Part shown: positions 16,134-64,000 of the stretch, one piece after another
How the letters are laid out: every line of letters starts with the position of its first letter
Position numbering within the stretch: the stretch's first letter is position 1
Assembly: GCF_044704955.1 (NCBI RefSeq)
Contig: NC_091998.1
Coordinates: 60,078,001 to 60,142,000, forward strand
Source of the DNA: Pristiophorus japonicus
Taxonomy: Eukaryota
Reading direction: 5' to 3'
DNA: 64,000 nt
Translations under genes and position numbers: made by a program
The notes under the pieces: model-generated
Databases searched by the model: none
What the model saw: the letters and a program-made list of their open reading frames with translations, nothing else
Told to the model about the DNA's origin: nothing

Positions 16134-17700
16134 TTAGGCAGTCCCCCAAAGTTGAGGATGACTTGATACCACACTAGTATGAGTTCTAAGGTGACTGTTG
16201 ATGCCAATGGGGGATCTACAGTCTCTGTTACAGGTGGGGCAGGTGGTGGTTGGAGGGATGGGTGGGTGGGGTGCTTGGTTTTTCATACGCTCCTTCCACT
16301 GTTTGTACTTGGCTTCCGCGTGCTCCCGGCGAAGAGACTCGAGGAGGCTTTGAGGGTGTTCTTGAAGCGTTTTCTCTCCACTCCTGAGACTCACTTGCCA
16401 TGACGGAACTCGGAGTAAAGTGCTTGTTTCTGGAGTTTAACATCGGGAATGCAGATAATGTGGCCTGTCCACCGGAGCTGGTTGAGCGTAGTCAATGCTT
16501 CGATGTTGGCCTGAGAGAAAACGCTGATGTTGGTGCGTCAATCTTGCCAGTGGATTTGCAGGATCTTGTGGAAGCAGCATTGGTGGTACTTCTCCACTGC
16601 TTTGAGGTGCCTGCTGTATATAGTCCATGTCTCTGAATAATACAGGAGGGCATGTATAACTACTGCTCTGTAGACCATGAGCTTGGTGCCAGATTTGAGA
16701 TCCCGTCTTTGAACAATCTTTTCCTCAGGCGACCGAAGGCTGCACTGACACACTGAAGATGGTGTTGGACTTCGTTATCGATGTCTCTCCTTGCTGACAG
16801 TAGATTCCCAAGGTATGGAAAATGGTTCACGTTGTCCAAGATCTCATCATTGTAGGATTTCTAAATCTCTCTGGACTTACATTAAAAACATACACAAATG
16901 CACATTAACAGCAGTAATCAGTTACTTAGTTACAACAAATGAGGTTATAATAAAAACGATATACTTAGTTCCCTTTGGCTGGCAGATTGGACACACAGCT
17001 TGCTGTTTTAGCTGGTCTTCAGGGATGTCTTGTGCTGTGTGTCCGAGAGAGAGAGAAAAGCCTTTGGCTGAGTTCTTTTAAACCTCTCAAAGCCATTGTC
17101 CCTCTGAAAGCCCCATGATTGGACCCTGGCACCAGGGCAGTTCCCCATTGGCTCGCCTCGCACATGTGGCTGTCTGGTCTGGCTCAGCCATCTCTGATTA
17201 GTTTAAATGGCTTTTCAATACACAGAACCCACGCGGCAGCTCTGGGGGCTTTCATTTTGTTTCTTACAAAACTTAGCCCATGCTGGCAATCTGTGGGCTT
17301 CCATTTTATCTCAATACAAACAGGCCTTTCTGTTAATCTACACTTTTAACATTTCTACATACACATAATCAATTTTAATCATTAATAAACACTTTTATTC
17401 TGATATCATGGATTTTGATTGGCGGGTGTGGGGGGAGGCGGGCAGTGCTGTGTGGTGTGGGGAGGTTGGTAGAGAACCTTTTTCTTACGGATGTTTAATG
17501 TAAGGTCCAGACTCTCTCAAGCTTCGGTGAAGGTGTCAATAGTGGTTCGGAGTTCGGCCTCCAAGTGTGCACAAACACAAGCATCGTCTGCATACTGATG
17601 TTCAATGACACAGATTGGAAAAACCAGGGATCTGGACTGGTGGCGATGGAAGTTGGACAGTTCCCGTATGTCCAAGAGATTAGCTCCATTCCACCCTTAC
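16134..17700 (-). mobile_element. RTE-clade LINE fragment, split by a solo LTR at 16851-17405
   Basis: TKLMVYRAVV..LLY.SETWT, ILQIHWQD and the C-terminal CPTCNRDC...H zinc motif; the RT YADD region continues at 17406-17700. Confidence 0.88.
16851..17405 (-). mobile_element. Solo LTR of the retrovirus-like element at 18956-23698
   Basis: Reverse-complement homolog of 20572-21172, ~45 bp shorter; 4-bp TSD tcat at 16847-16850 and 17406-17409; RTE sequence is contiguous across it. Confidence 0.9.
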
Positions 17701-18955
17701 ATCAATAAAAGCAGGCGTAGGGGCTGCTTTCACTAGCGTAAGGGTTAATATACATCGTAAGTTAAATTTTTAGAAATAAAACATCATTCATAAACACTTA
17801 AAATTAGTTTATGCAAATTTTGGCCCAGATTAAAATGTTTAAAATTATTTTTCCAAAAAAATTAAATTTTTATTGTATATGCTTTAAGTGAAGGTATTTT
17901 AAAATTAAATTTGAACATTTATTTTTATTCCAGTTGTATAAATTATTTAATTATTTGGAAATTCCTCATATGCTTATGGGGATTCTGTCTGTAAATGGAA
18001 TCCCTGTAAGCATATTAGGAATCCTCTTTTCTGATTGGAGGACCTGGCCCACATGATCCCAGGGACGCTTCCAAAGCGCCTGTGTCCCTGTGGTCCGTGG
18101 GACTTTATGCAGGCGTGGGCCTGCCAGCACAGGACCCAAAGACTCCGAAGTCCGCGAGCCTGAAAGTAAGTGCAGATATTTTTAGCAGGTTGGAGGTATA
18201 CTCCGGAGGTACGCCTCCTACTGGAAATTCCCAGCCAATGTCACCACAAAAGCAACTCGGCACAGACAATCTTGATCTGGCCTCCCTCTGAGACATGAGT
18301 AAGAGAGGGCTCAGGGACACGAGCCACTGTACAGTTATCTACCTTCATAAGAGGCAAGTGCCTTGTGATAATTCAGTTGCACACACTTCCCATTTCTGAT
18401 TTGCTGTCCTGTGCAGGTTATGCAGCAATGATTTGCAACGACTACAATTGATACTGTGAGAAATCCTTATTGGTCAGGAAATAGTGTTGGGGAAATTGAT
18501 GGGATTGAAGGCCGATAAATCCCCAGGGCCTGATAGTCTGCATCCCAGAGTACTTAAGGAAGTGACCCTAGAAATAGTAGATGCATTGGTGGTCATTTTC
18601 CAACATTCCATGGACTCTGGATCAGTTCCTATGGATTGTAGGGTAGCTAATGTAACCTCACTTTTTAGAAAAGGAGGGAAGGAGAAAACAGGGAATTATA
18701 GACCGGTCAGCCTGACATCGGTGGTGGGGAAAATGCTGGAATCAATTATTAAAGATGTGATAGCGCATTTGGAAAGCAGTGACAGGATCGGTCCAAGTCA
18801 GCAAGGATTTATGAAAGGGAAATCATGCTTGACAAATCTTCTAGAATTTTTTGAGGATTTAATGAGTAGAGTGGATAAGGGAGAACCAGCAGATGTGGTG
18901 CATTTGGACTTTCAAAAGGCTTTTGACAAGGTCCCATACGAGAGATTGGTGTGCA

Positions 18956-20208
18956 GTCACGGAGTCCTGCAATGCTGTTAGCAAGGCCTCCCCAACAGAT
19001 ACCCTAGATTTAAAATCCCTGAAGCAGCAATATTGGTCATATGCTGTTGTAAGCGCCTGGCACGAGGAAGGCAGACCCCTTCCTTAACCAACAGCCTGGG
19101 CTCCCAATACCAGTCTAGCCACTGCCCCTGACTCAGTAGAGCAGTTGTTGATGTTCAAAAGAAAGCCACACCCCTGCCCGGTGGTGTGTATTCCACCAGA
19201 GGTGGGTCAGGAGCTGCTCTCACTCTTTCACTCCCACCTCACAGCAGGGCACTATTTGGCCCTGATATTCTTCTACAAGGTAGCATCCACAGCTTGGTGG
19301 CCTTCTATGAGGGAATCAATCAACCAATATGTGGCACGATGCCTACTGTGCCTATATGCACTAACCGAGCCTTGCTTCAAAGTGCACCCCCACCACAAGG
19401 GCCATGGACTCATGTCCAGATAGACTTCATTGAGCTACTTCCACAGGCGCAAGGCAATTTTCAGCATGCCCTAGTGGTGGTGGATCAATTCACTAAATGG
19501 ACACAACCACAGCAGCAGGGGAATGCTTCGATCCATTTGTAGGTGGGGAGTACCAGTACAAGTGGACAGCGATCAAAATTCACACTTTATCGGTAAAATT
19601 TTTACCCACCTGCAGGAAATGTTGGGGATAAAACACAAATTACATATTGCTCACTGTCCCCAGTCATCCAGAGGGGTCGAAAGGGGGAAACAGGACCCTC
19701 AAGTTAATGTTAAAAAAATTGTGCGTGGATCACCCCACTCAATGGGCTAACATGCTGCCAATGTGCTTAATGGCAATGAGGTCCACATCTCATAGAACAT
19801 CAGGGTTCTCCGCATATCAGGCTATGACGGGGACGCTCATGAGAACACCAGGCCAACTAACGCTAACAGGGATGAGTCCCCTGACAATGAAAACATGTAG
19901 TTCAAAGTGGCTGGAACAAGTGATAGATCACACCGATCAGATCAATCGATTTGTGGCCACCAAATTGGGGAAGTCAAAGAGACAAATTAAAAAGTACTTT
20001 GACAAGAAAGTACGTCCCTGTGAATACAAAGTGGGATACTCAGTGATGATTCCAAATTATGGGAAAAAGAAACTGCCTCTGAGCCTGGGTGGTGGGGACC
20101 ACATAAGATTATAGACCCGTGGTTTATTTGATTCAGTTACCAGGGAAGAAGGGTGTTAAGTACAAGAAGTGGTTTCACAGTAATCAGTTAAAAACTGCCA
20201 AAGAGTAA
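18956..20208 (+). pseudogene. Retroviral-type integrase (3' pol), frameshifted
   Basis: HHCC (FHSHLTAGH...VARCLLC), PPQGPWTHVQIDFI, VVVDQFTKW, VDSDQNSHF, HCPQSSRGVE(R), NRTLK and C-terminal KWFHSNQLK spread over several frames. Confidence 0.88.
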
Positions 20209-20571
20209 ATACTGCCCTGACCTTGTTTCCCACAGACTATGTTACGGATCCTCACGATTGTCAGGACGACACTGGCCAAGACTGAAGCCGAGGGAAGATG
20301 CAGAAGCGGGAGCCACAGCTTGACTCATGGACATCATCAATAGTCAATGTGCTTCGAGAAGCGACGGTGCACTGAGGATACAGGAAGGGGAGAGTCTCCG
20401 CTGGAGATGTTATCGGACTGTTATTAAATCCCCTACACCTTACGAGGTGGGGACCAAATCAGGCCACCCACTTTTCTTCCTTTCCCCCTCAATGTCTATA
20501 ATATGTGATCCCTGAGGAGATAAGCCATATGAGGGGTCAATAAGGATATTTCCCCCTCAAGGTGGGGAGTT

Positions 20572-21172
20572 TGTAAGAATAAAAGTGTTTATTAATGATT
20601 AAAATTGATTATGTGTATGTATAAGTGTTAAAAGTGTAGATTAACGGAAAGGCCTGCTTGTGTTGAGATAAAATAGAAGCCCACTGATTGCCAGCATGGG
20701 CTAAGTTTTGTAAGAAACAAAATGAAAGCCCCCAGAACTGCCGCATGGGTTTTATGTATTGGAAAGCCATTTAAACTAATCAGAGATGGCTGAGCCAGAC
20801 CAGATAGCCACATGTGTGAGGAGAGCCAATGGGGAACTGCCCTGGAGCCAGGGTCCAATCGTGGGGCTTTCGGAGGGACAATGGCTTTGAGAGGTTTAAA
20901 AGAACTTGGCCAAAAACTTTTCTCTCTCTCTCTTAGACACACAGCACAAGACATCCCTGAAGACCAGCTAAAACAGCAAGCCGTGTGTCCAATCAGCCAG
21001 CCAAAGGGAAGTAACATATATAGTTTTTATTATAACCTCATTTGTTGTAACTAAGTAACTGATTACTGTTGCTAATATGCTTGTGTGTATGTTTTTAATA
21101 AACTCTTCTAATTGTTTGGAAAGAATCGTCCCACTGTCGAATATAAGTCCAGAGAGATTTAGAAATCCTACA
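20572..21172 (+). mobile_element. Single internal LTR (601 bp) with PPT upstream and PBS downstream
   Basis: tgtaaga...tcctaca ends; purine tract aaggtggggag at 20559-20569; PBS tggtggggaatgcgggca at 21177-21194, complementary to the tRNA-Ala(AGC) 3' end with one G-U wobble. Confidence 0.9.
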
Positions 21173-21409
21173 AAATTGGTGGGGAATGCGGGCAACTGGC
21201 GAGACAGCTTTTTGATGATTCTTTTGAACAATTGGAAATCTCGGGAGTTGCGATTCTAACCTGTGTTGCGATTATAATTGAAACAATTAAACAAATCGGG
21301 AGATGTGTCTTAGGGGAGCAGTCATCTCGATAGTTGTAACTGTTTAGGTAGGGTGGGTTGGAACTGTTTAACTGGGGACCCATCAGGCGTTATATTCAAA
21401 AGACACAGG

Positions 21410-23213
21410 ATGAAGGGATCGGTCATGGACAGGAAGCCAACAATAAAAAGTAATGTTGAGCTAGTTTATCAGGAGAGGTTGTCCAAAAAGTTCCCGATAC
21501 AAGACGCAGAAGAGTTAAGAGCACAGGCACAGCACGAGGGTAGACCTGCCTCAATTGGGGAGACGGTGAGAATTATCCAGGAGAGGGTAGATAGGGGAGA
21601 GCTGAGATCAAAACGGGCAAACAGTCTCGTGACATTTAGCGCTTTTTATTGTGCCAGGAGAGATGAGGAATTAATGAGGCAAGACGCCAAAGTGATACAA
21701 GATTTGAAAGAATTGCAAGTAAAAGAGATTCAGTTAAAAGAAAGAGAGAATGAAGGTATAAAACAACAAAAGGAAGAAGGCCTCCAACATGTGAAACAGT
21801 TAAAAGAGGGAGAAATACAGCATTTAAGACAAGAAATTGGCCACTTAAACCACAGCATTAAGCAATTAGAAAGAGAGGCCGAACAGGCAGCTTCACTGCT
21901 ACAGCAACAAAGCCTTTCAAACTTAAATGCTACCGCAGCCATTGTTGAAGCAAATGAAAAGAAATTAGAGTTAAAAAAATATAAATGAGAAAACTTGAGG
22001 CTCCAGCAAGAGATAGAAGATGCTAGAGCTGTATTAGGAGAAGTCATTAAGAAGCCACATAGGGAAACAGATCACTCCCAGTGCCAGCTAGAAATAGCGA
22101 GGCTAAAAAGTAAGTTAGGGGAGCAGCAGGCCCTGGTATCCAGAGTAACACGGGGAGCCATAACAGAGACAGCGAAAGGGGGAACCAGATTGGGAAGAGG
22201 AAGGCAGTCAGTATAATCCCCAGGAGAGTGGTGTAGAATGGGATACCTTGGAGACACAAGAGCCAATCGTAGCCGTAGTAACCACTTCTTCATGACGTAA
22301 TGTGCACGGCCACATCACCAGTAACCATACCGACTCACGGCCCATATCTGGTTCTGACGCCATGGCGTGTAGCCATGAGTTGGGGCCCATTAATGATGGG
22401 GACGACCCACTGGAAGTTAATAGGAGGTGAGAAAATTTCAGGAGGCGTCACCCCGAGTTGAAAGAGAGAGACTTAACACAAGACCTCTTCTTGGCCTGTT
22501 CCACTTCCCTAAAAGATAATCTGCCAGAAGCAATCCTCCAGGTTGCCACAGCGGCCGACGCACTCATGACCGAGATCCTAAACCATTTAGGGATCCGAAA
22601 CTTGAACTTAGTGGCTCTGCTTAATCAGACCAAGCAGCACCCGGGAGAGACCCCTAGAGCCTTCAGTAATCACCTGTACGATATCTATCAACGTACGCAG
22701 AACCAGGCACCTGCAAATGCTACAGTAGGAAAGAATCAGGAACAATTTAAATCGATGTTCCTGACCCAATTCCACCCTTTAGTTAAAACCACCCTGGGAA
22801 TAGCCATGAGGCCCACCAATCAGTGGACAGATATAGAGACCAATGCTCAAATAGCCTGGGAGATGATAAAAGACCAGTTAAAGGGGAAGTCACCACCCAC
22901 TGCAAATAAACCAGTGTCAACGGTGGAGGGATCTCAAAACTGTCCCTTTAAGGGACAGTGCTTTAATTGTAAGAAGGTAGGTCACCTAGCAAAAGACTGC
23001 AACAGACCCAGACCAGCACCGAATTATGATGCAATGCATAGATACCTCGCGAGGGACAAATACAAGCCCTCTGGGACAGACCAAAGATTGGATAAATTGA
23101 TAATCTTTATACAAACCGAAATTGCCACGGGGAGGTTGCAAAATTATTTAGCGGTGCACGTAATCGACAATGCATACTCATTAGAGAGACCCATTCCAGG
23201 ATCGACCCTGTGA
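21410..23213 (+). pseudogene. Gag with N-terminal coiled coil, capsid-like region and CCHC knuckle; disrupted
   Basis: E/K/Q-rich heptads in ORFs 21353-21988 and 21995-22216; KQHPGETPRAFSNHL (MHR-like) and CFNCKKVGHLAKDC in ORF 22458-23213; in-frame stop at 21986-21988. Confidence 0.85.
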
Positions 23214-23698
23214 CAGGGTTCGGCCCCCCAAAGATTGGTCGGAAGTGGGGTTCTGACATGATGGTAGCGGGAGACCAGTAGTCCGTGTTGTCTTAAAAGG
23301 GGGCAGGCAGCAGTTTATGTTTATCGATATTGGCTCAGCCGTTACCATCATCCACACCCCATACCCTGAACGTCATGCGGCGGTGGGCAAGGGTTATATG
23401 ACCCTTAAAGGGTTTAACAGTGATACAACCACCGCGTATACAGGGAAGGCCACTGAACTTCAGTTGGAAGGCCTCACCTGTAAGGTCCCAGCACCTATGC
23501 TGATGACCACCCCCGACAGAAGGGGAATTTTAGGGACTGATGTGTTGGATCAGTATGGCGCGATAATAGATTATAATCAGGACTGTGTTTGGATGGGATT
23601 GGGAGATAATGCAGGAGTGATATAAATTTCAGATGCTCACTTGGTTTTTGCTATTAAAAAGCCATCTGCGTACGACGCTACAGCGAGTGAAAATGAAG
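23214..23698 (+). pseudogene. Retroviral aspartic protease; pol truncated before RT
   Basis: FIDIGSAVTII (degenerate DTG) and GILGTDVL motifs; joins CR1 at ~23699. Confidence 0.82.
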
Positions 23699-25719
23699 CT
23701 AGTGGGGTGCTGCAAGGCTCAGTGCTGGGACCCCAGCTATTTACAATATACATTAATGATTTGGACGAAGGAATTGAGTGTAGTATCTCCAAGTTTGCAG
23801 ATGACACTAAGCTGGGTGGCAGTGTGAGCTGTGAGGAGGACGTTAAGAGGTTGCAGGGTGACTTGGACAGGTTAAAGAATGGGCAAATGCATGGCAGTAT
23901 AATGTGGATAAGTGTGAGGTTATCCTCTTTGGTGGCAAAAACAGGAAGGCAGATTATTATCTGAATGGTGATAGATTAGTAAAAGGGGAGGTGCAGCAAG
24001 ACCTAGGTGTCATGGTACATCAGTCATTGAAAGTAGGCATACAGGTATAGCAGGCAGAAAAGAAAGCAAATGGCATGTTGGCCTTCATAGCGAGAGGATA
24101 GAAATATAGAAATATAGAATATGCGAATAGGAGCAGGGAGGTCTTGCTGCAGTTGTACTTGGTGAGACCACATCTTAAGAATTGTGTGCAGTTTTGGTCT
24201 CCTAAGCTGAGGAAGGACGTTCTTGCTATTGAGGGAGTGCAGCGAAGGTTCATCAGACTGATTCCCGGGATGGCTGTACTGACATATGAAGAAAGATTGG
24301 ATCGACTTGGCTTATATTCACTGGAAGTTAGAAGGTTGAGAGGGGGTCTCATAGAAGCATATAAAATTCTGACGGGATTGGACAGGTTAGATGCAGGAAG
24401 AATGTTCCCGATGTTGGGGAAGTCCAGAACCAGGGGGTCACAGTCTAAGGATAAGGGGTAAGCCATCTAGGACCGAGATGAGGAGAAACGTTTTCACCCG
24501 GAGAATTCTCTACAGTTGTTGTTGAGTCCAGTTCGTTGGATATATTCAAAAGGGAATTAGATGTGGCCCTTACGGCTAAAGGGATCAGGGGTGTGGAGAG
24601 AAGGCAGGTATGGGGTACTGAAGTTGCATGATCAGCCATGATCATATTGAATGGTGGTGCAGGCTCGAAGGGCCGAATGGCCTGCTCCTGCACCTATTTT
24701 CTATGTTTTCTATGTTCCTATATCGATTGGGGGTGCAGGGAGAGGATTGTAATTTGCTGATCAGAATAGTTGCTTCTGGGAACATTGCTTTTACATATAG
24801 TTCTACATCGTATGAAAATCTCTCTGGTTTTTCGCAGGCACTGGGAGCCACCTTGTGGTAAAAGTCTGCAGGAACAGCCCCAGGTACAGTCCAGCGAAAG
24901 ATGACTTTTAACATGCAGCACCGAAACAGGCTATTCGGCCCAACATGTCCGGTGTTTATCCTCCACAGGAGCCTCCTCCCACCCCTCTCCATCTAAGCCC
25001 ATCAGCATATCCTTCTACAGGTATTCCTTTCTCGCTCATATTTAAATGCATCTGTGCTATTCGCCTCCTTGGGTCGCAAGTTCCACATTCTAACCGTTCT
25101 TTGGTTAAAGAAGTTTCTCCTGAATTCCCAACTGGACTGTCTTATATTTATGGTCCCTAGTTCTGGACCTCCCACGAGTGCAAATATCTTCTCTACGTCT
25201 ACCCTTACAGAATTTTTCAGACCTCCGTAACGTCACTCCTCAGCCTTCTCTTTTCCAAAGGAAAAGAGTCCCAGCCTGTTCAATCTTTCCTGGTACGTAT
25301 AACCTCTCAGTTCTGGTACCATTGATAGGAGGCATTGAGGGGAGAAATAAAGTTCTGCGTAAGTTAAAAATGCATTTTATATTTTCCAAAGATTCAATCT
25401 AGACTCTTTATGAAATAATGCTTGTGACATCTGTAATATATTGAAATACAAATCTGAAGGGGCAATACATATTGTAAACGTTCCAGAGAGCATTATAGAA
25501 GGCAGTTACAGATAACACATTCTATGTTGGAGGCAGTGTGTTTAAGGATAGAATTTTATAAGGCAGAAGGAGATCATTCGGTGAAACACATCTATGCCAG
25601 CTCTCTGAAACAGCTATTTACTTTTCCCCATGCTCCTGCCCATTCTTCATACAATGATACAGTACAGAAGGAGGCTAGTCAGCCCATCATGGCAATAGAG
25701 CAGTGTAGCGAGAGAGTTT

Positions 25720-38102: not shown

Positions 38103-38299
38103 ACGCAGGTACTGAACGACTAACCTTTAATTGTATCAAGAAAAGTACTTGAGGCATTGCGTGGTGCGTCTAAAAACAAATAAAGATCAGTTAACTTACA
38201 TTGGCTGTGAAGCAATTTGAGAGATGACGGGAAGATAAAATGGGTGATATCAATGCAAGTTCCTTCATCACAAAGCACATAAACCAGGCCAACACTTTA

Positions 38300-39087
38300 G
38301 TGCAGTACCGAGGGAACACTGCACTGTCGGAGGGGCAGTACTGAGGGAGTGCCGCGCTGTCAGAGGGGCAGTACTGAGGGAGTGCCGCACTGCCGGAGGG
38401 GCAGTACTGAGGGAGTGCCGCACCGTCGGAGGGGCAGTACTGAGGGAGCACTGCACCATCGGAGGGGCAATACTGAGGGAGTGCCACACTGTAGGAGGTG
38501 CAGTACTGAGGGAATGCTGCACTGTAGGAGTGGCAGTACTGAGGGAGTGCTGCACTGTTGGGGGGTCATTACTGAGGGAATGCTGCACTGTCGGAGCGGC
38601 AGTACTGAGGGAGTGCCGCACTGTAGGAGGGGCAGTACTGAGGGAATGCTGCACGTCGGAGGGGCAGTACTGAGGGAGCGCACTGTCGGGGGGGTCAGTA
38701 CTGAGGGAGTCATCATCATCATAGGCGGTCCCTCGAATGTGGATGACTTGCTTCCATGAGTTCACGGTGTTTTGATGAAGGACCTGATGTTCCAGCCCTG
38801 AACTCCAATTGATGAGGTGGAAGATGCCTGTGCGTGGATTTTTTTCACATATGGTGACCGTTGCACACCAGCCACCACACGGGCTTGACAGAGCTAGGCC
38901 TTGGTCCAGTGGCAAGGATTAACCAAGACGACTGGAGACCTGACTGACTGAGGGAGTGCTGTACTGTCGGAGGGGAAGTACTCCGGGTGTGCTGCACTAT
39001 ACAAGGGGCGGTACTGAGGGAGCGCTGCATTGTCAGAGGGGCAGTGCTGAGGGAGTACCGCACTGTAGGAGGGGCAGTGCTGAGGGA
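38300..39087 (+). repeat. 33-bp DeuSINE-derived minisatellite (gcagtactgagggagtgccgcactgtcggaggg)n
   Basis: Tandem units seen directly; interrupted at ~38711-38946 by a short RTE-related element flanked by actgagggagt. Confidence 0.9.
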
Positions 39088-39846
39088 CCCAGGTTAAGAC
39101 AGGTGCTGTTCCATTGCATGTGTTGTTGAAGGTGCAGCTTACATCCACACGCTTTCTGGCAATAATTCTAGCAGGGAATGTCGTGGGTTTATCTGTGAAA
39201 TCTAACACACAGAGAAAGGATCCTTTTAGATAAATATAACATGAAGCATCAGTTCAAATAGAAATCACAGTCCCAGAACTGAGAGGTTACAATGATCAGG
39301 AAAGGCTGAACAACCTGGGGCTCTACGGCTGAGAGTGAGCTGAAAGACATCGTTACAATTATGAAGGACCAGATGTAGAGACGATACTGCCGCTTGTGGG
39401 GGAGTCTAAAACTCAGGGCCATAAATAAAAGATAGTCACTAATAAATCCAATAGCGAATTCAGAAGAAAGTTCTTTACCCAGAGAGTGGTGAGAATGTGG
39501 AAGTTGCTACCACAGGGATTGCTGTGTTAATATATAACTGGGAGCACAGTCCCGCATTCCTGAACTCTTTTATTCAGCACACGGTCTGAAGTTTGGATCA
39601 AGAAAACAGAAAGATTGGAAGTTTGGATCGAAAAGAAACTGTTGGATAATGTGGTGCCTTCCAGCCATTGAGATGAGTGACTGGTCATGTCTGGATGTTA
39701 AATATTTGAGTACCTTGTTACAGTGGGAATAATGGAAATTCATGACGAAACGATTCTGTATGTTAAGTATTTGATTGTACCTTTGTTACTATTTAATGAC
39801 ATCTGTAGGTTAAACAAGCAATGTTTAGTATTTGAGTACCTTGTTA

Positions 39847-44330: not shown

Positions 44331-44995
44331 TTACAAGTCCTTAATATATATCTATATATATATATACAAAAATATATTCTGTGCTGATTACAATGCAGGA
44401 AAAATGGATTGGAAACCATCAGAACTCACGCCATTTACTCCATCGCGAGTCACTGATTAACCAAACCTTCTTGTTTGGTCTGCAACCCATCTGATTGTCT
44501 TAGCTGATTCAGTCTCCTTGATGCACTTTAATCCTCATTGGCTGAATAATCAGTTTGGACCCACAACAACAACAACTTTTATTTATATAGCGCATTTAAT
44601 TTAGGTAAACGTCCCAAGGCACTTCACAGGAGTATAATGCGCTAAAAAATTTGACACCGAGCCGCATAAGTAGAAATTAACGCAGGTGACCAAAAGCTTG
44701 GTCAAAGAGGTATGTGTTAAGGAGCGCTTTGTAGGAGGAAAGAGAGCATGGCGCCTAGGCAACAGAAGGCACGGTTACCAATGGTTGAGCGATTACAATG
44801 AGGGATGCTCAGGAGGGCAGAATTAGTGAAGCGCAGACATCTCGGGGGAGCTGTGGGGCTGGAGGAGATTACAGAGATAGGGAGGGGCGAGGCCGTGGAG
44901 GGATTTGAAAATAAGGATAAGAATTTCCTCACTGTCTAAGGAAACACTTTGGATACAAAACCAATATTGTTGTAGGTTGATTCCAATGCCGCATT

Positions 44996-45499
44996 GTAGA
45001 CTGACTGGTCCCCAGCTCAGCACGGGCCCTGCTCCAGCATCGTAGACTGACTGGTCCCCAGCTCAACACGGGCCCTGCTCCAGCATCGTAGACTGACTGG
45101 TCCCCAGCTCAACGCGGGCCCTGCTCCAGCATCGTAGACTGACTGGTCCCCAGCTCAGCAAGGGCCCTGCTGCAGCATCGTAGACTGACTGGTCCCCAGC
45201 TCAGCACGGGCCCTGCTCCAGCATCGTAGACTGACTGGTCCCCAGCTCAGCAAGGGCCCTGCTCCAGCATCGTAGACTGACTGGTCCCCAGCTCAACACG
45301 GGCCCTGCTCCAGCATCGTAGACTGACTGGTCCCCAGCTCAACGCGGGCCCTGCTCCAGCATCGTAGACTGACTGGTCCCCAGCTCAACGCGGGCCCTGC
45401 TCCAGCATCGTAGACTGACTGGTCCCCAGCTCAACGCGGGCCCTGCTCCAGCATCGTAGACTGACTGGTCCCCAGCTCAGCAAGGGCCCTGCTGCAGCA
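44996..45499. repeat. 46-bp minisatellite, 11 copies (last incomplete)
   Basis: Unit gtagactgactggtccccagctca(g/a)c(a/g)(c/a)gggccctgct(c/g)cagcatc starts every 46 nt from 44996 to 45456; no spacers. Confidence 0.95.
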
Positions 45500-48059
45500 G
45501 ACACTTTGAAGCACAGCAGCAAAGCGGCTCCAGCCTGAACTCTGAACATGTCGGAGGGGTTCATGACTTTCACAGATGGTGTCACTGATGGCAAACGCCT
45601 CTGGTTCCCCGTTCTTCCCCAATATTAATGATTTCAGCTGGAAAGTTACTGAGTTTCTGATAAGGAGCATAAATCATCGAGTCTTATAGCACAGGAGGCC
45701 ATTCGGCACATCGTGCATGTGCTGGGTCTTTGAAGGACCTTTACAATCATCCCCACTTCCCGTTTTTCCCCATCACCCTGCAGTGCTTATTATGCTGCAA
45801 GCCACGGGGAGTTGGGGAGAAATTTTTATTACACAGCAAATTGTTATAATCTGGATTGCGCTGCCTGAAAGGGTTGCGGAAGAAGATTCAATATTAACTT
45901 TCCGAAGGGAATTGGATAAACACTTGAAGGGGAAATTTTGCAGGGCTATGGGGGAAGAGTGGGGAAATGAGACTAGTTGGATTGCTCCACCAAAGAGTCG
46001 ACACAGGCACAATGGGCCGAATGGCCTCCATCTCTGCTCTATCAGTCCGTAGTGCCCATTTCCTTCTGTTTAGCCCAGTAAAAGCAACTATTTCTCAGCG
46101 ATCTTTTGGGCCTTGCATCAGCCCAGCGAAGTGCATGCTAGGTGCCGAAACTCGGACTGGGCTTTGTGTGGGCGATCAGTTCGGCGATCATTTCGGCAAA
46201 GTGAGCCGAAACTTGGGCACTTGTTTTTTCAGCGATGTTTTGGGCCTAGTGTCCACTTTTTCCTCAAAATGGGCGATAGAGGTCTGTTTTGGGCGATAGC
46301 CGGGCCTTAGATGGGCGATGTGAAGTGGAAAGTCTAGCCCATTCTATGACATTTAACTGCAGAGCAGATCACAGTCAAACAGAGAAGCTCTGTACATTTC
46401 ACACCTTTATACATTTCCTGGTTTACCTTCTTTCTATTTTGCAGTTACTTTGTCCCCTTATCATGGTTGCTATCATGGTGACAATAGACAGGAAGTGCGA
46501 GGGCTGAGCTGCCTGTCTATTCTCAGTGCTGCTATGTTGCCTTCATGGGAACTTCTTACTAAAATCAGCAAAAGACACACATTTCAGAACTTTGTTATCA
46601 GACCTCAAGCATCGGGAGAGATTGCTTTCCCCGTTTTGATCCCCTTCTTCCCTCAACCCATTGCCCCCTGTGCTCATTGTGCTACATTGGCTCCCATTCT
46701 GGCAATGCCTCGAATTTAAAATCTTCTTTGTCGATTTTGTCCCGCCGATGCCTCATCACCCTTCCCCATATCTGTGTAACCTCCTCCAGCCCTACAATCC
46801 TCTGTAATCTCTGCGCTCCTCCAATACTGCCCAGGAACGCTCTGTAATCTCTGCGCTCCTCCAATACTGCCCTGAATGCTTTTCCAATTCCCTTCTGAAA
46901 GTGAATCTTCTTCCATCATCCACACAGGCAAAGCATTCCCCATCACAACAACTCACTGCATAATAAGGATTCTCCTCATGTCCCCTTGGCTTGGAGCACA
47001 ATCAACACTGAGCAGTCAGCCTAAGTTTTAGTTTACACTTCGAGTTGCTGTGATCTGGAATGTACGGCCTGACAGGGCGGTGGAAGCAGCTTCAATATAA
47101 ACTTTCAAAACTCAATTGCATAAATACTTGAAGGGAAAAAAATTATAGATCTTTGGGGAAAGAGCAGCGTAGTGAGATTAATTGGGTGGAATGGCCTCCT
47201 TCAGTGCTGTAAGATTCAATGATTCTATGAAATTTAAAGCACTGCATATTTGAGCCGATTATACATTTTCTGGTTTGCCTTCTTTCCATCTTTCAGATAT
47301 TTGCCTCCTTATGGTTGCTATGGCAGTGAGAATTGGCAGGAAGTGTGAGGACTGAACTGCCTATCTATTCTAAGTGCTGATGTGCTACTTCATGTCGATA
47401 TCTCACTAAAATCAGCAAAAGACACACAATTTTAAGCCTTTGTAGCAGCAGAACAGGTTTTGTAACCCAGTTTTTAATCCCCCTTCTCTCCTCATCCCAT
47501 TACCCCCTGTGCTCAGTGTGCTGCATTGACTCCCGGTCTGGCAACACCTCGAATTTAAAAACTTCACACTCGATTTCAAATCCCTCTGTGGCTTTGCTCC
47601 TCTCCCTATCTCTGTAACCTCCACCAGCCCGGCAACCCGCACTGACCTCTCTGCTCCTCCAATTGTTGCCGGACTGGTAGCCAATGTATGTCAGCGAGTA
47701 CAGGGTGATTTGATGAACGGACTTGGTGCAAGTTCGTGCATTGGGTCACTGCTGAATTTGGTTCCCAATCCTAGCTCAATACGAATCATCTTTTGCAAAG
47801 ACTATTAGCCCAGACCTATTTATGGATAACGATGATATTACCTTGGAGAAGTGGCAGGAGAAAGTAACATTTCCTGATCATTGCCACTCCCATATATTTC
47901 ATCAACTTCTCACTCTCAACGTCTGAAAGTTTCAGACACTGAGACCTCACCTCTTGCCCGACAGCTCTGAAGAGATCAAAACTGCTTTTAGACAATTTTT
48001 CACGGAATCATTTGATTCTCTGTGGGATGATAGGTGCTCTGTAGTGAGTTGCAAGGCTT

Positions 48060-55509: not shown

Positions 55510-56163
55510 ACACATGGGAGAACTCCCCTATTCTTTCTTGAAATAGGGGTCTTGGGATCTTTTATGTCTACTGAAGAGGGCAGATGCAGTCATTAGATTT
55601 AATGTCTCATCCGAAAGATGGCATCTTTGACAGTGCAGTGCTCCCTCAGTACTAACCCTCCGACAGTGCAGCACTCCCTCAGTACCGACCTTCCGACTGT
55701 GCAGCGCTCCCTCACTCCTGCCCCTCCGACAGTGTAGCACTCCCTCAGTACTCTCCCTCCGACTGTGCAGCACTCCCTCAGTACCACCCCCTCTGACAGT
55801 GCAGTACTCCCTCAGTACTGCCCCTCCGACAGTGCAGCGCTCCCTCAGTACCACCCCTCCAACAGTGCAGCACTCCCTCAGAACTGCTCGAGCGACAGTG
55901 CACTGCTCGCTCAGTACTGCCCCTCTGACAGTGCAGCACTCGCTCATTACTGCCGCTCCGACAGTGCAACGCTCCCTCAGTACTGCCCTTCTGTAAGTGC
56001 AGCACTCCCTTAGTATTGCCCTTCCGTAAGTGCAGCAGTCCCTCAGCACTGCCCCTCCGACAGTGCATTGCTCACTCTGTACTACAATGGGAGTGTCGGC
56101 CTGGAATATGGAACAAGAGTCTCTGGAATGGGTCTCGAACCAACGACCTTCTGACTCAGAGGT

Positions 56164-61201: not shown

Positions 61202-61317
61202 CTAAAAACAAATAAAGATCAGTTAACTTACACTGGCTGTGAAGCAATTTGAGAGGTGATGAAAGGTGTGATATCAATGCACATTCATTCATCAAAATCC
61301 ATGCCGATATATTAGTG

Positions 61318-62150
61318 CAGTACTGAGGGAGTGCTATACTGCCGGAGCGGCAGTACTGAGGGAGCGCCGCACTGTTGGAGGGGCAGTACTAAGGAAGCAC
61401 TGCACTGTCGGAGAGGCTGTACTGAGGGAGCACTGCACTGTCGGAGGGGCAGTACTGAGGAAGCTCTACATGGTCAGAGGGGCTGTACTGAGGGAGCGCT
61501 GCACTGCCGGAGGGACAATACTGAGGGAGTGCTGCACTGTCGGAGGAACCGTACAGAAGGAGTTCTGCAAAGTTAGAGGGGCAGTTTGAGGGAGCGCTGC
61601 ACCATGGGAGGGGCAGTACTGAGGGAGTGCCGCTATGTTGCAGAGGCAGTACTGAGGGAGTTGTGCACTGTCGGAGGGGCAGTACTGAGTGAGCGCCTCA
61701 CCATCTGAGGGGCAGTACTGAGGGAGCGCCACACTTTTGGAGGGGCAGTACTGAGGGTGTGGTGCACTGTCAGGGGGCAGTACTGATGGAGCGCATCACC
61801 GTCCAGGGGCAGTACTGAGGGAGTACCTCACCGCCCGAGGGGCAGTACTGAGGGAGTGCCTCACCACCCGAGGGGCAGTACTGAGGGAGCACCTCACTGC
61901 CCGAGGGGCAGTACTGAGGGAGTGCCGCACTGTCGGAGGGGCAGTACTGAGGGAGTGGTGCACTGTCGGAGGTGCTGTCTTTGTCACGAGACATTAAAGC
62001 GATGCTCCATCTGCCCTCTCAGCTGGATGTAAAAGAACCCATGACTCTATTAAAGAAGAGTTTTGCCCAGTGTTGTAGCCAATATTTATCAGTAAAAAAA
62101 CAGGTGTACTGATCATTGCCTTGTTGCTGTTGTGGGATGTTGCTGTGCAC
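61318..62150 (+). repeat. 33-bp minisatellite running into a DeuSINE core
   Basis: ~20 units to ~61975, then ggtgctgtctttgtcacgagacattaaa... Confidence 0.88.
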
Positions 62151-63434: not shown

Positions 63435-63549
63435 CTAAAAACAAATAAAGATCAGTTAACTTACACTGGCTGTGAAGCAATTTGAGAGGTGATGAAAGGT
63501 GTGATATCAATGCACATTCATTCATCAAAATCCATGCCGATATATTAGT

Positions 63550-64000
63550 GCAGTACTGAGGGAGTGCTATACTGCCGGAGCGGCAGTACTGACGGAGCGC
63601 CACACTGTTGGAGAGGCAGTACTAAGGAAGCACTGCACTGTCAGAAGGGCTGTACTGAGGGAGCACTGCACTGTCGGAGGGGCTGTACTGAGGGAGCACT
63701 GCACTGTCGGAGGGGTTGTACTGAGGGAATTCTGCACTGCCGGAGAGGCAATACTGAGGGAGCACTGCACTGTCGGAGAGGCAGTAATGAGGGAGCTCTG
63801 CGCTGTCAGAGGGGCAGTACTGCGGGAGCTCTGCACTGCCGGAGGGGCAGTACTGATGGAACGCCGCACTTTCGGAGGGGCAGTACTGAGGCAGCGCTGC
63901 ACTGTCGGAGGGGCAGTACTGAGGGAGTGGTGCACTGTCGGAGGGGCAGTACTGAGGGAACGCCACACTGTCGGAGGGGCAGTAATGAGGGAGTGGTGCA
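63550..64000 (+). repeat. 33-bp DeuSINE-derived minisatellite to the window end
   Basis: Tandem units seen directly. Confidence 0.9.

Follow-up and report, generated by a model that had tools for sequence, protein, structure and literature searches.

We analysed a 64,000-nucleotide stretch of the 5.9-Gb genome of Pristiophorus japonicus (the window; NC_091998.1, positions 60078001-60142000; coordinates below are window positions unless a contig handle precedes them). The window is rich in CR1 copies, and lodged within a single CR1 is an insert of ~4.7 kb that consists of DNA of a long terminal repeat (LTR) retroelement. The element DNA (18962-23700, plus strand) reads integrase (IN) - polypurine tract (PPT) - one LTR - primer-binding site (PBS) - gag - protease (PR). 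This permuted insert is real and unusual. The insert opens with the RNase H/integrase linker, a decayed integrase and a short 3′ region that lacks env (18962..20558), a region holding stops and frameshifts, with the H2C2 domain at ~19190-19354 and a fragment of the integrase core at ~19541-19654. A PPT follows (20559..20569), identical to the tract ahead of the 3′ LTRs in natural copies of the family. The single central LTR (20572..21172), bounded by TG and CA, has the PPT on one side and the PBS on the other; the latter (21177..21194) is of the tRNA-Ala type, one letter off the family form. Next come a decayed gag with stops and frameshifts (21410..23213; CCHC knuckle at ~22956-23000) and an aspartyl protease region (23257..23700), which runs up to the right breakpoint, ahead of the reverse transcriptase (RT).

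A Pfam search of 12 open frames from the region returned RVT_1 at both CR1 flanks (profile positions 3-89 on the left, E 2e-12, and 114-161 on the right, E 1e-5) and, in the order given above, Integrase_H2C2 (E 9e-12), a weak fragment of rve, zf-CCHC, and weak protease matches (RVP and gag-asp_proteas, under the Pfam cut-off). The tRNA and Rfam searches of the region gave no match. RT and RNase H are absent from the insert, and the missing ~1.85 kb was not found in the window or in 20 kb to either side of it. The locus is a decayed and presumably neutral fossil.

The order of the insert is not that of its family. First-look searches with two queries gave 1037 and 1066 candidates, and 40 stretches of 10 kb were fetched as the top matches, among which one rearranged unit is present in 7 copies. 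In all 34 stretches that carry gag-PR and IN on one strand, gag-PR comes first, which rules out permutation as the norm of the family and likewise a Gmr1-like order. Natural copies (for example, L011, L130 and L133) have two LTRs, a 4-bp target site duplication (TSD), a tRNA-Ala PBS, dual RNase H and no env. In such copies ~1.85 kb separates the positions of the two breakpoints and carries RT, RT_RNaseH and a second RNase_H (PF17917/PF17919 followed by PF00075, the last being over the cut-off in one copy and under it in another). The space from IN to the PPT measures only ~350-420 nt in the mapped copies, shows no Pfam match and leaves no room for env. The family PBS corresponds to the sequence in which tRNA-Ala genes of this genome end at the 3′ side (the pattern matched 440 times; both of the two places fetched proved to be tRNA-Ala). 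Among 39 full-length LTRs, only the central LTR has the family PPT and a PBS together, one flag raised by purine count having proved false; among 60 other LTRs one more was recognised by eye, and about one third of these 60 have neither (by a coarse pattern test with a few misassignments). The LTRs with both signals at C11:5.72 Mb and C1:364.78 Mb were considered as further permuted inserts and ruled out: they are the 3′ LTRs of two-LTR elements with a trailing PBS or leader.

At the left junction the CR1 left half (18453..18955, plus strand; the N-terminal part of RT, 5′-truncated) stops at 18955, a 6-nt filler follows (18956..18961), and the element begins at 18962. At the right junction the element stops at 23700 and the CR1 restarts at 23699, so that the two have the dinucleotide CT in common (23699..23700), or 6 of 7 letters if a gap is allowed; the right half (23699..24720, plus strand) holds the rest of RT and the 3′ end. 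Compared with CR1 copies that span the site, 114 nt were lost in 29 of 34 comparisons and 109-115 nt in the other 5. Both ends of the insert fall in pol and not at LTRs, and no TSD flanks it, a pattern at odds with insertion by integrase; the junctions are of the end-joining type. The outer ends of the CR1 have no TSD either, the best match being 5 nt long and off the ends. The filler matches, over 6 nt and in inverted orientation, CR1 sequence located at the right break, but a derivation from there was rejected as not significant (chance about 0.1).

Diagnostic sites are in the state of the close group at 7 of 7 positions in the left half and at 12 of 13 in the right half, and the changes private to each half amount to 3.8% and 4.2%, respectively. 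On these sites and rates, the halves are parts of one collinear CR1, of one subfamily and age and about as old as the provirus discussed below. Consistent with this, copies picked by the left half are nearer to the right half than background copies (9.1%, n=21, versus 11.8%, n=13; P 7e-6). An origin of the halves from two different CR1 copies was entertained on the strength of raw best-match identities (93% left, 87% right) and a flat first rank correlation (rho 0.21, n=13). However, the mismatch in raw identity stems from gaps and selection, and gap-free distances together with the diagnostic sites overruled it.

Most of the structural description in the initial annotation, which had been made from the sequence alone, is borne out by these data. 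This applies to the order of parts, the loss of RT/RNase H, the lack of a TSD and of outer LTRs, the collinear CR1 with ~115 nt lost, and a true circular permutation, evidenced by the PPT-LTR-PBS junction and by the gag-first order of the family. Two of the three refuting conditions that it named, on the order of canonical copies and on the kinship of the CR1 halves, were examined, and both came out in its favour. Its limits for the insert, 18956..23698, need a small shift, the first six letters being filler and the element DNA reaching 23700; its "at most a few nt" of junction microhomology fits the right end, whereas the left end has filler instead. It overlooked the solo LTR at 16851-17405, to which we now turn.

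The longest inverted repeat of the window pairs 17036-17401 with 20576-20941, that is, part of the central LTR with part of a second LTR of the same family. This second LTR (16851..17405, minus strand), marked by a deletion of its own (~46 nt, close to the 3′ end), stands alone 1.55 kb from the insert and is flanked on both sides by TCAT (16847..16850 and 17406..17409, plus strand); 4-bp TSDs are usual for the family. It sits in a fragmentary long interspersed nuclear element (one side of it at 16343..16850, minus strand), which we take to be of the RTE type from its translated motif. The RTE is collinear across the LTR in 6 distinct natural copies, with offsets of -17 to -33 nt under relaxed limits (strict limits gave 0). 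A single LTR, a TSD and collinear host DNA on both sides are what LTR-LTR recombination leaves, and we read 16851-17405 as a solo LTR and as the scar of the original provirus, with the RTE as its target. Between the right TSD copy and the CR1 lies host segment B (17406..18452), which is RTE up to ~17665; the remainder is without matches in the fetched loci, and the segment has no Rfam match. A short imperfect palindrome at 17950-18025 was noted by eye.

Several lines of evidence tie the solo LTR to the central LTR. With the best 40 candidates scored in each search, out of 2229 in one and 1914 in the other, the two are reciprocal best matches, at 93% identity versus 82-88% and 85-91%. They are sisters with an ultrafast bootstrap (UFBoot) of 99 in trees of 40 and of 62 LTRs. 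They have a mosaic in common, in which positions 1-410 are 5-9% from one group, while positions 415-490 are 15-20% from that group and only 5-11% from a second one. A diagnostic 26-mer that spans a deletion common to both has just 2 exact genomic matches, these two LTRs themselves (control 0), and is present in exact form in 0 of 60 other LTRs; of its 13 genomic matches within 2 mismatches, the 11 with 1-2 mismatches are otherwise distant LTRs. The two LTRs differ at 37 of 555 sites (6.7%), about equally on each side, and the differences are spread evenly, with no identical stretch longer than 51 nt (P 0.69). This distance falls within the 2.7-9.0% of 9 intra-element LTR pairs and is twice the private changes of gag-PR (3.4%). 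By chance, a family LTR would lie within 1.56 kb with a probability of only ~0.001-0.005. Judged by this sequence evidence, it is almost certain that the solo and central LTRs once bounded a single provirus. Therefore the DNA of the insert came, with near certainty, from the adjacent provirus and not from a stray reverse-transcription circle.

How the provirus came to its present shape is less settled, and two nested inversions in cis are on balance the probable course. A complete two-LTR element would have integrated normally in the RTE, on the minus strand, with the TSD TCAT and ~1 kb upstream of the CR1; this much is strongly suggested by the solo LTR and its flanks. In a first step, breaks in pol and in the CR1 may have cost ~1.85 kb and 114 nt, respectively, and the ~4.7 kb between them (gag-PR, the 5′ LTR, host segment B and the CR1 left half) would have been rejoined in inverted orientation by end joining. 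This would yield both observed junctions and turn the two LTRs into inverted repeats ~3.2 kb apart. In a second step, a crossover between the inverted LTRs could have flipped the block between them, restoring the orientation of the RTE, segment B and the CR1. It would leave a TSD-flanked solo LTR and, within the CR1, the series IN-PPT-LTR-PBS-gag-PR; segment B would now lie in its ancestral orientation. No free circle would be needed, and the two steps may lie far apart in time.

The scheme can be followed as bookkeeping with symbols only, where X stands for the IN region, Y for RT/RNase H, Z for gag-PR and d for the 114 nt, C1 and C2 are the CR1 halves and a prime marks the reverse strand. 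From the ancestor, A L3' X' Y' Z' L5' B C1 d C2, two operations lead exactly to the observed order, A L' B C1 X L Z C2: first the block Z' L5' B C1 is inverted while Y and d are lost, and then a second inversion takes place between the opposed LTRs. The repeats are opposed and close, no segment is duplicated, and the losses are confined to the two non-homologous junctions. Nested inversions require that the repeats be near to each other and in opposite orientation; both are observed and therefore count for this route. Steps of both types are frequent among human inversions: of 183 resolved cases described in bioRxiv 10.1101/2021.12.20.472354, 23 show deletions or insertions at their flanks and 31 lie between mobile elements in inverted orientation. 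Another element of the present family also contains an inverted LTR-gag piece, in seven near-identical copies, and this too was counted for the inversions.

Other observations weigh against this reconstruction or the sister relationship on which it builds. Of the 9 intra-element pairs, 8 are less divergent than the solo and central LTRs with their 6.7%, and the private changes of the IN region reach 4.9%. In the alignment of 40 LTRs, the solo and central LTRs have 0 strictly private substitutions in common; what unites them is a mosaic of states known in other subfamilies plus indels, and the reciprocal best matches hold within the 40 scored candidates of each search. No inverted intermediate was seen in the one genome at hand, and two successive events must both have been inherited. 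Among the read contigs listed (4 runs of one sample, contigs only; share of words 0.39-0.41) no piece bridges the junctions, repeat copies having swamped the placement, and these contigs speak neither for nor against them. Finally, the end state is formally identical for the inversions, for local re-insertion of a circle and for a templated copy, and because of this their ranking rests on priors.

A crossover between the direct LTRs of the provirus might instead have left the solo LTR and freed a 1-LTR circle; on opening, this circle would have lost RT/RNase H, and its ends would have been ligated to a CR1 break 1.5 kb off. We regard this excision circle as unlikely, even though the sister LTRs, the TSD and the junctions fit it equally, the even spread of the LTR-LTR differences is what reciprocal products predict, and a single allele is enough. 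Passages of PMC4751563 report circles from intrachromatid LTR-LTR recombination in yeast and speculate on their re-entry. The formation of the circle, a second cut in it and the chromosomal break would have to coincide in time and space. Locality is here an extra assumption, orientation would be 50:50, and no permuted copy away from the donor turned up in 39 other scored places (best 40 of 3101) or in the 40 stretches. It is accordingly doubtful that an LTR element of a vertebrate germline moved here in a cut-and-paste manner, by way of a 1-LTR circle from LTR-LTR recombination and integrase-free re-insertion 1.5 kb away, with both reciprocal products kept. An extrachromosomal intermediate, of which the initial annotation saw a fossil, could still have a part in this form, but two nested inversions arrive at all four junctions with no such stage.

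A templated copy is somewhat less probable again. A broken CR1 end would have invaded the neighbouring provirus where RNase H meets IN. Synthesis would have run through IN and the 3′ LTR, jumped to the 5′ LTR and gone on through gag-PR before the end returned to the CR1, with collapse of the provirus to a solo LTR at the time or later. Filler and microhomology fit such synthesis-dependent repair, locality is accounted for, and solo LTRs are common in the family. However, three switches plus a separate solo event are needed, and there is no tract of low divergence between the LTRs, although an early event would make this absence uninformative.

The explanations offered by the initial annotation fare much worse. 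A 1-LTR circle formed as a by-product of reverse transcription and patched into an unrelated break, a tandem provirus trimmed by two deletions, or a switch of template while the CR1 was being reverse-transcribed would all be unrelated to the solo LTR. The permuted order and the absent TSD fit them, and two natural copies do have PBS or leader sequence past a 3′ LTR. None of them accounts for the nearest LTR relative lying 1.55 kb off, inverted and with its own TSD, unless a chance neighbour (~0.001-0.005) is combined with an old conversion of the whole LTR; such origins are strongly disfavoured, and we hold them for very improbable. An assembly artefact has the slightest chance of all: the reads gave no independent confirmation of the junctions, but no part is present more than once at the locus, 37 sites distinguish the LTRs, the CR1 halves are compatible with a single copy, the bookkeeping closes and the TSD is intact.

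Some further features of the family and the window were noted. The seven copies with the inverted piece (L014, L015 and L017-L021, on short contigs) are 98.9-100% identical; in this unit LTR-gag is inverted relative to gag-pol, the two parting at a single position of gag, where they overlap by 4 nt, and ~1.4 kb of another repeat lies between them. In the two-LTR elements at C11:5719541-5720272 and C1:364779538-364780106, the 3′ LTR is followed by the PBS and up to ~130 nt of the 5′ leader, perhaps a result of over-extended plus-strand synthesis. In the 5′ leader of another element a 24-nt tandem array has grown to ~1.1 kb (C7:103541250-103542380). Family LTRs are patchworks of subfamily blocks with recurrent indels, a composition that suggests frequent recombination among subfamilies. 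The closest named proteins are Gypsy/NYNRIN-like proteins of bowfin and coelacanth at 37-50% identity (8 matches among 6509 candidates), and among RTs of solved structure those from gammaretroviruses, foamy viruses and Ty3 reach similar scores. The tRNA-Ala genes form long tandem arrays with a spacing of ~1.1-1.3 kb at C1:476.18-476.99 Mb. Elsewhere in the window, one 33-nt minisatellite forms dispersed arrays on both strands (38212-39111, 55596-56120, 61227-62044 and 63460-64000), and a 46-nt tandem array occupies 44899-45591.

As a rearrangement, the locus is a novel variant on known types. The two reciprocal products of an exchange between LTRs would here be kept side by side, a situation that is rarely traceable. 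If the nested inversions took place, circular permutation, which is often read as proof of a circle, can arise without any circle, and an inversion can rebuild a textbook solo LTR with its TSD. If an excision circle was involved, the locus would be direct fossil evidence that DNA lost in solo-LTR formation can re-enter the germline. Within the text passages and listings that a literature search covered, there is no description of a permuted LTR element beside its own inverted solo LTR; in the passages of PMC5408684 considered, there is only a permuted scaffold, possibly a free 1-LTR circle.

In its layout the family resembles the dual-RNase H LTR retroelements of PMC9040795, which comprise lokiretroviruses, Odin retrotransposons and env-less endogenous retroviruses: natural copies show RT, a tether and a second RNase H (RT_RNaseH followed by RNase_H), IN, two LTRs and a 4-bp TSD, the likeness being one of domain layout. 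The dual-RNase H, env-less layout is that of the Odin elements described there; the lokiretrovirus env, related to fusion proteins of Mononegavirales, would find no room in the family copies.

As for the rearrangement, the yeast Ty1 solo LTR and its 1-LTR excision circle, as treated in parts of PMC4751563, likewise combine a TSD-flanked solo LTR with internal DNA joined through one LTR. Here, however, both products are in the chromosome, 1.5 kb apart, inverted and with non-homologous junctions, whereas the speculation in those parts concerns re-entry by homology into an existing LTR only. Each step of the proposed double inversion belongs to one class of human inversions in the portions of bioRxiv 10.1101/2021.12.20.472354 used, namely inversions with flanking deletions, and inversions or toggling by non-allelic homologous recombination between mobile elements. 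The difference, not met in those portions, is that the first inversion would create the repeats that drive the second, with a net result that mimics insertion of a circle. Sections of bioRxiv 10.1101/2022.06.22.497135 on cattle KIT and tilapia vasa take permuted order, such as that seen here, as the fossil of a germline circle; the alternatives in these sections are linear fragments and break-induced replication mediated by microhomology (MMBIR), and the circle-free inversions proposed here are not among them. The cattle and tilapia insertions are 28-575 kb long and distant from their source, whereas the present one is 4.7 kb long and local, with the scar of its donor identified.

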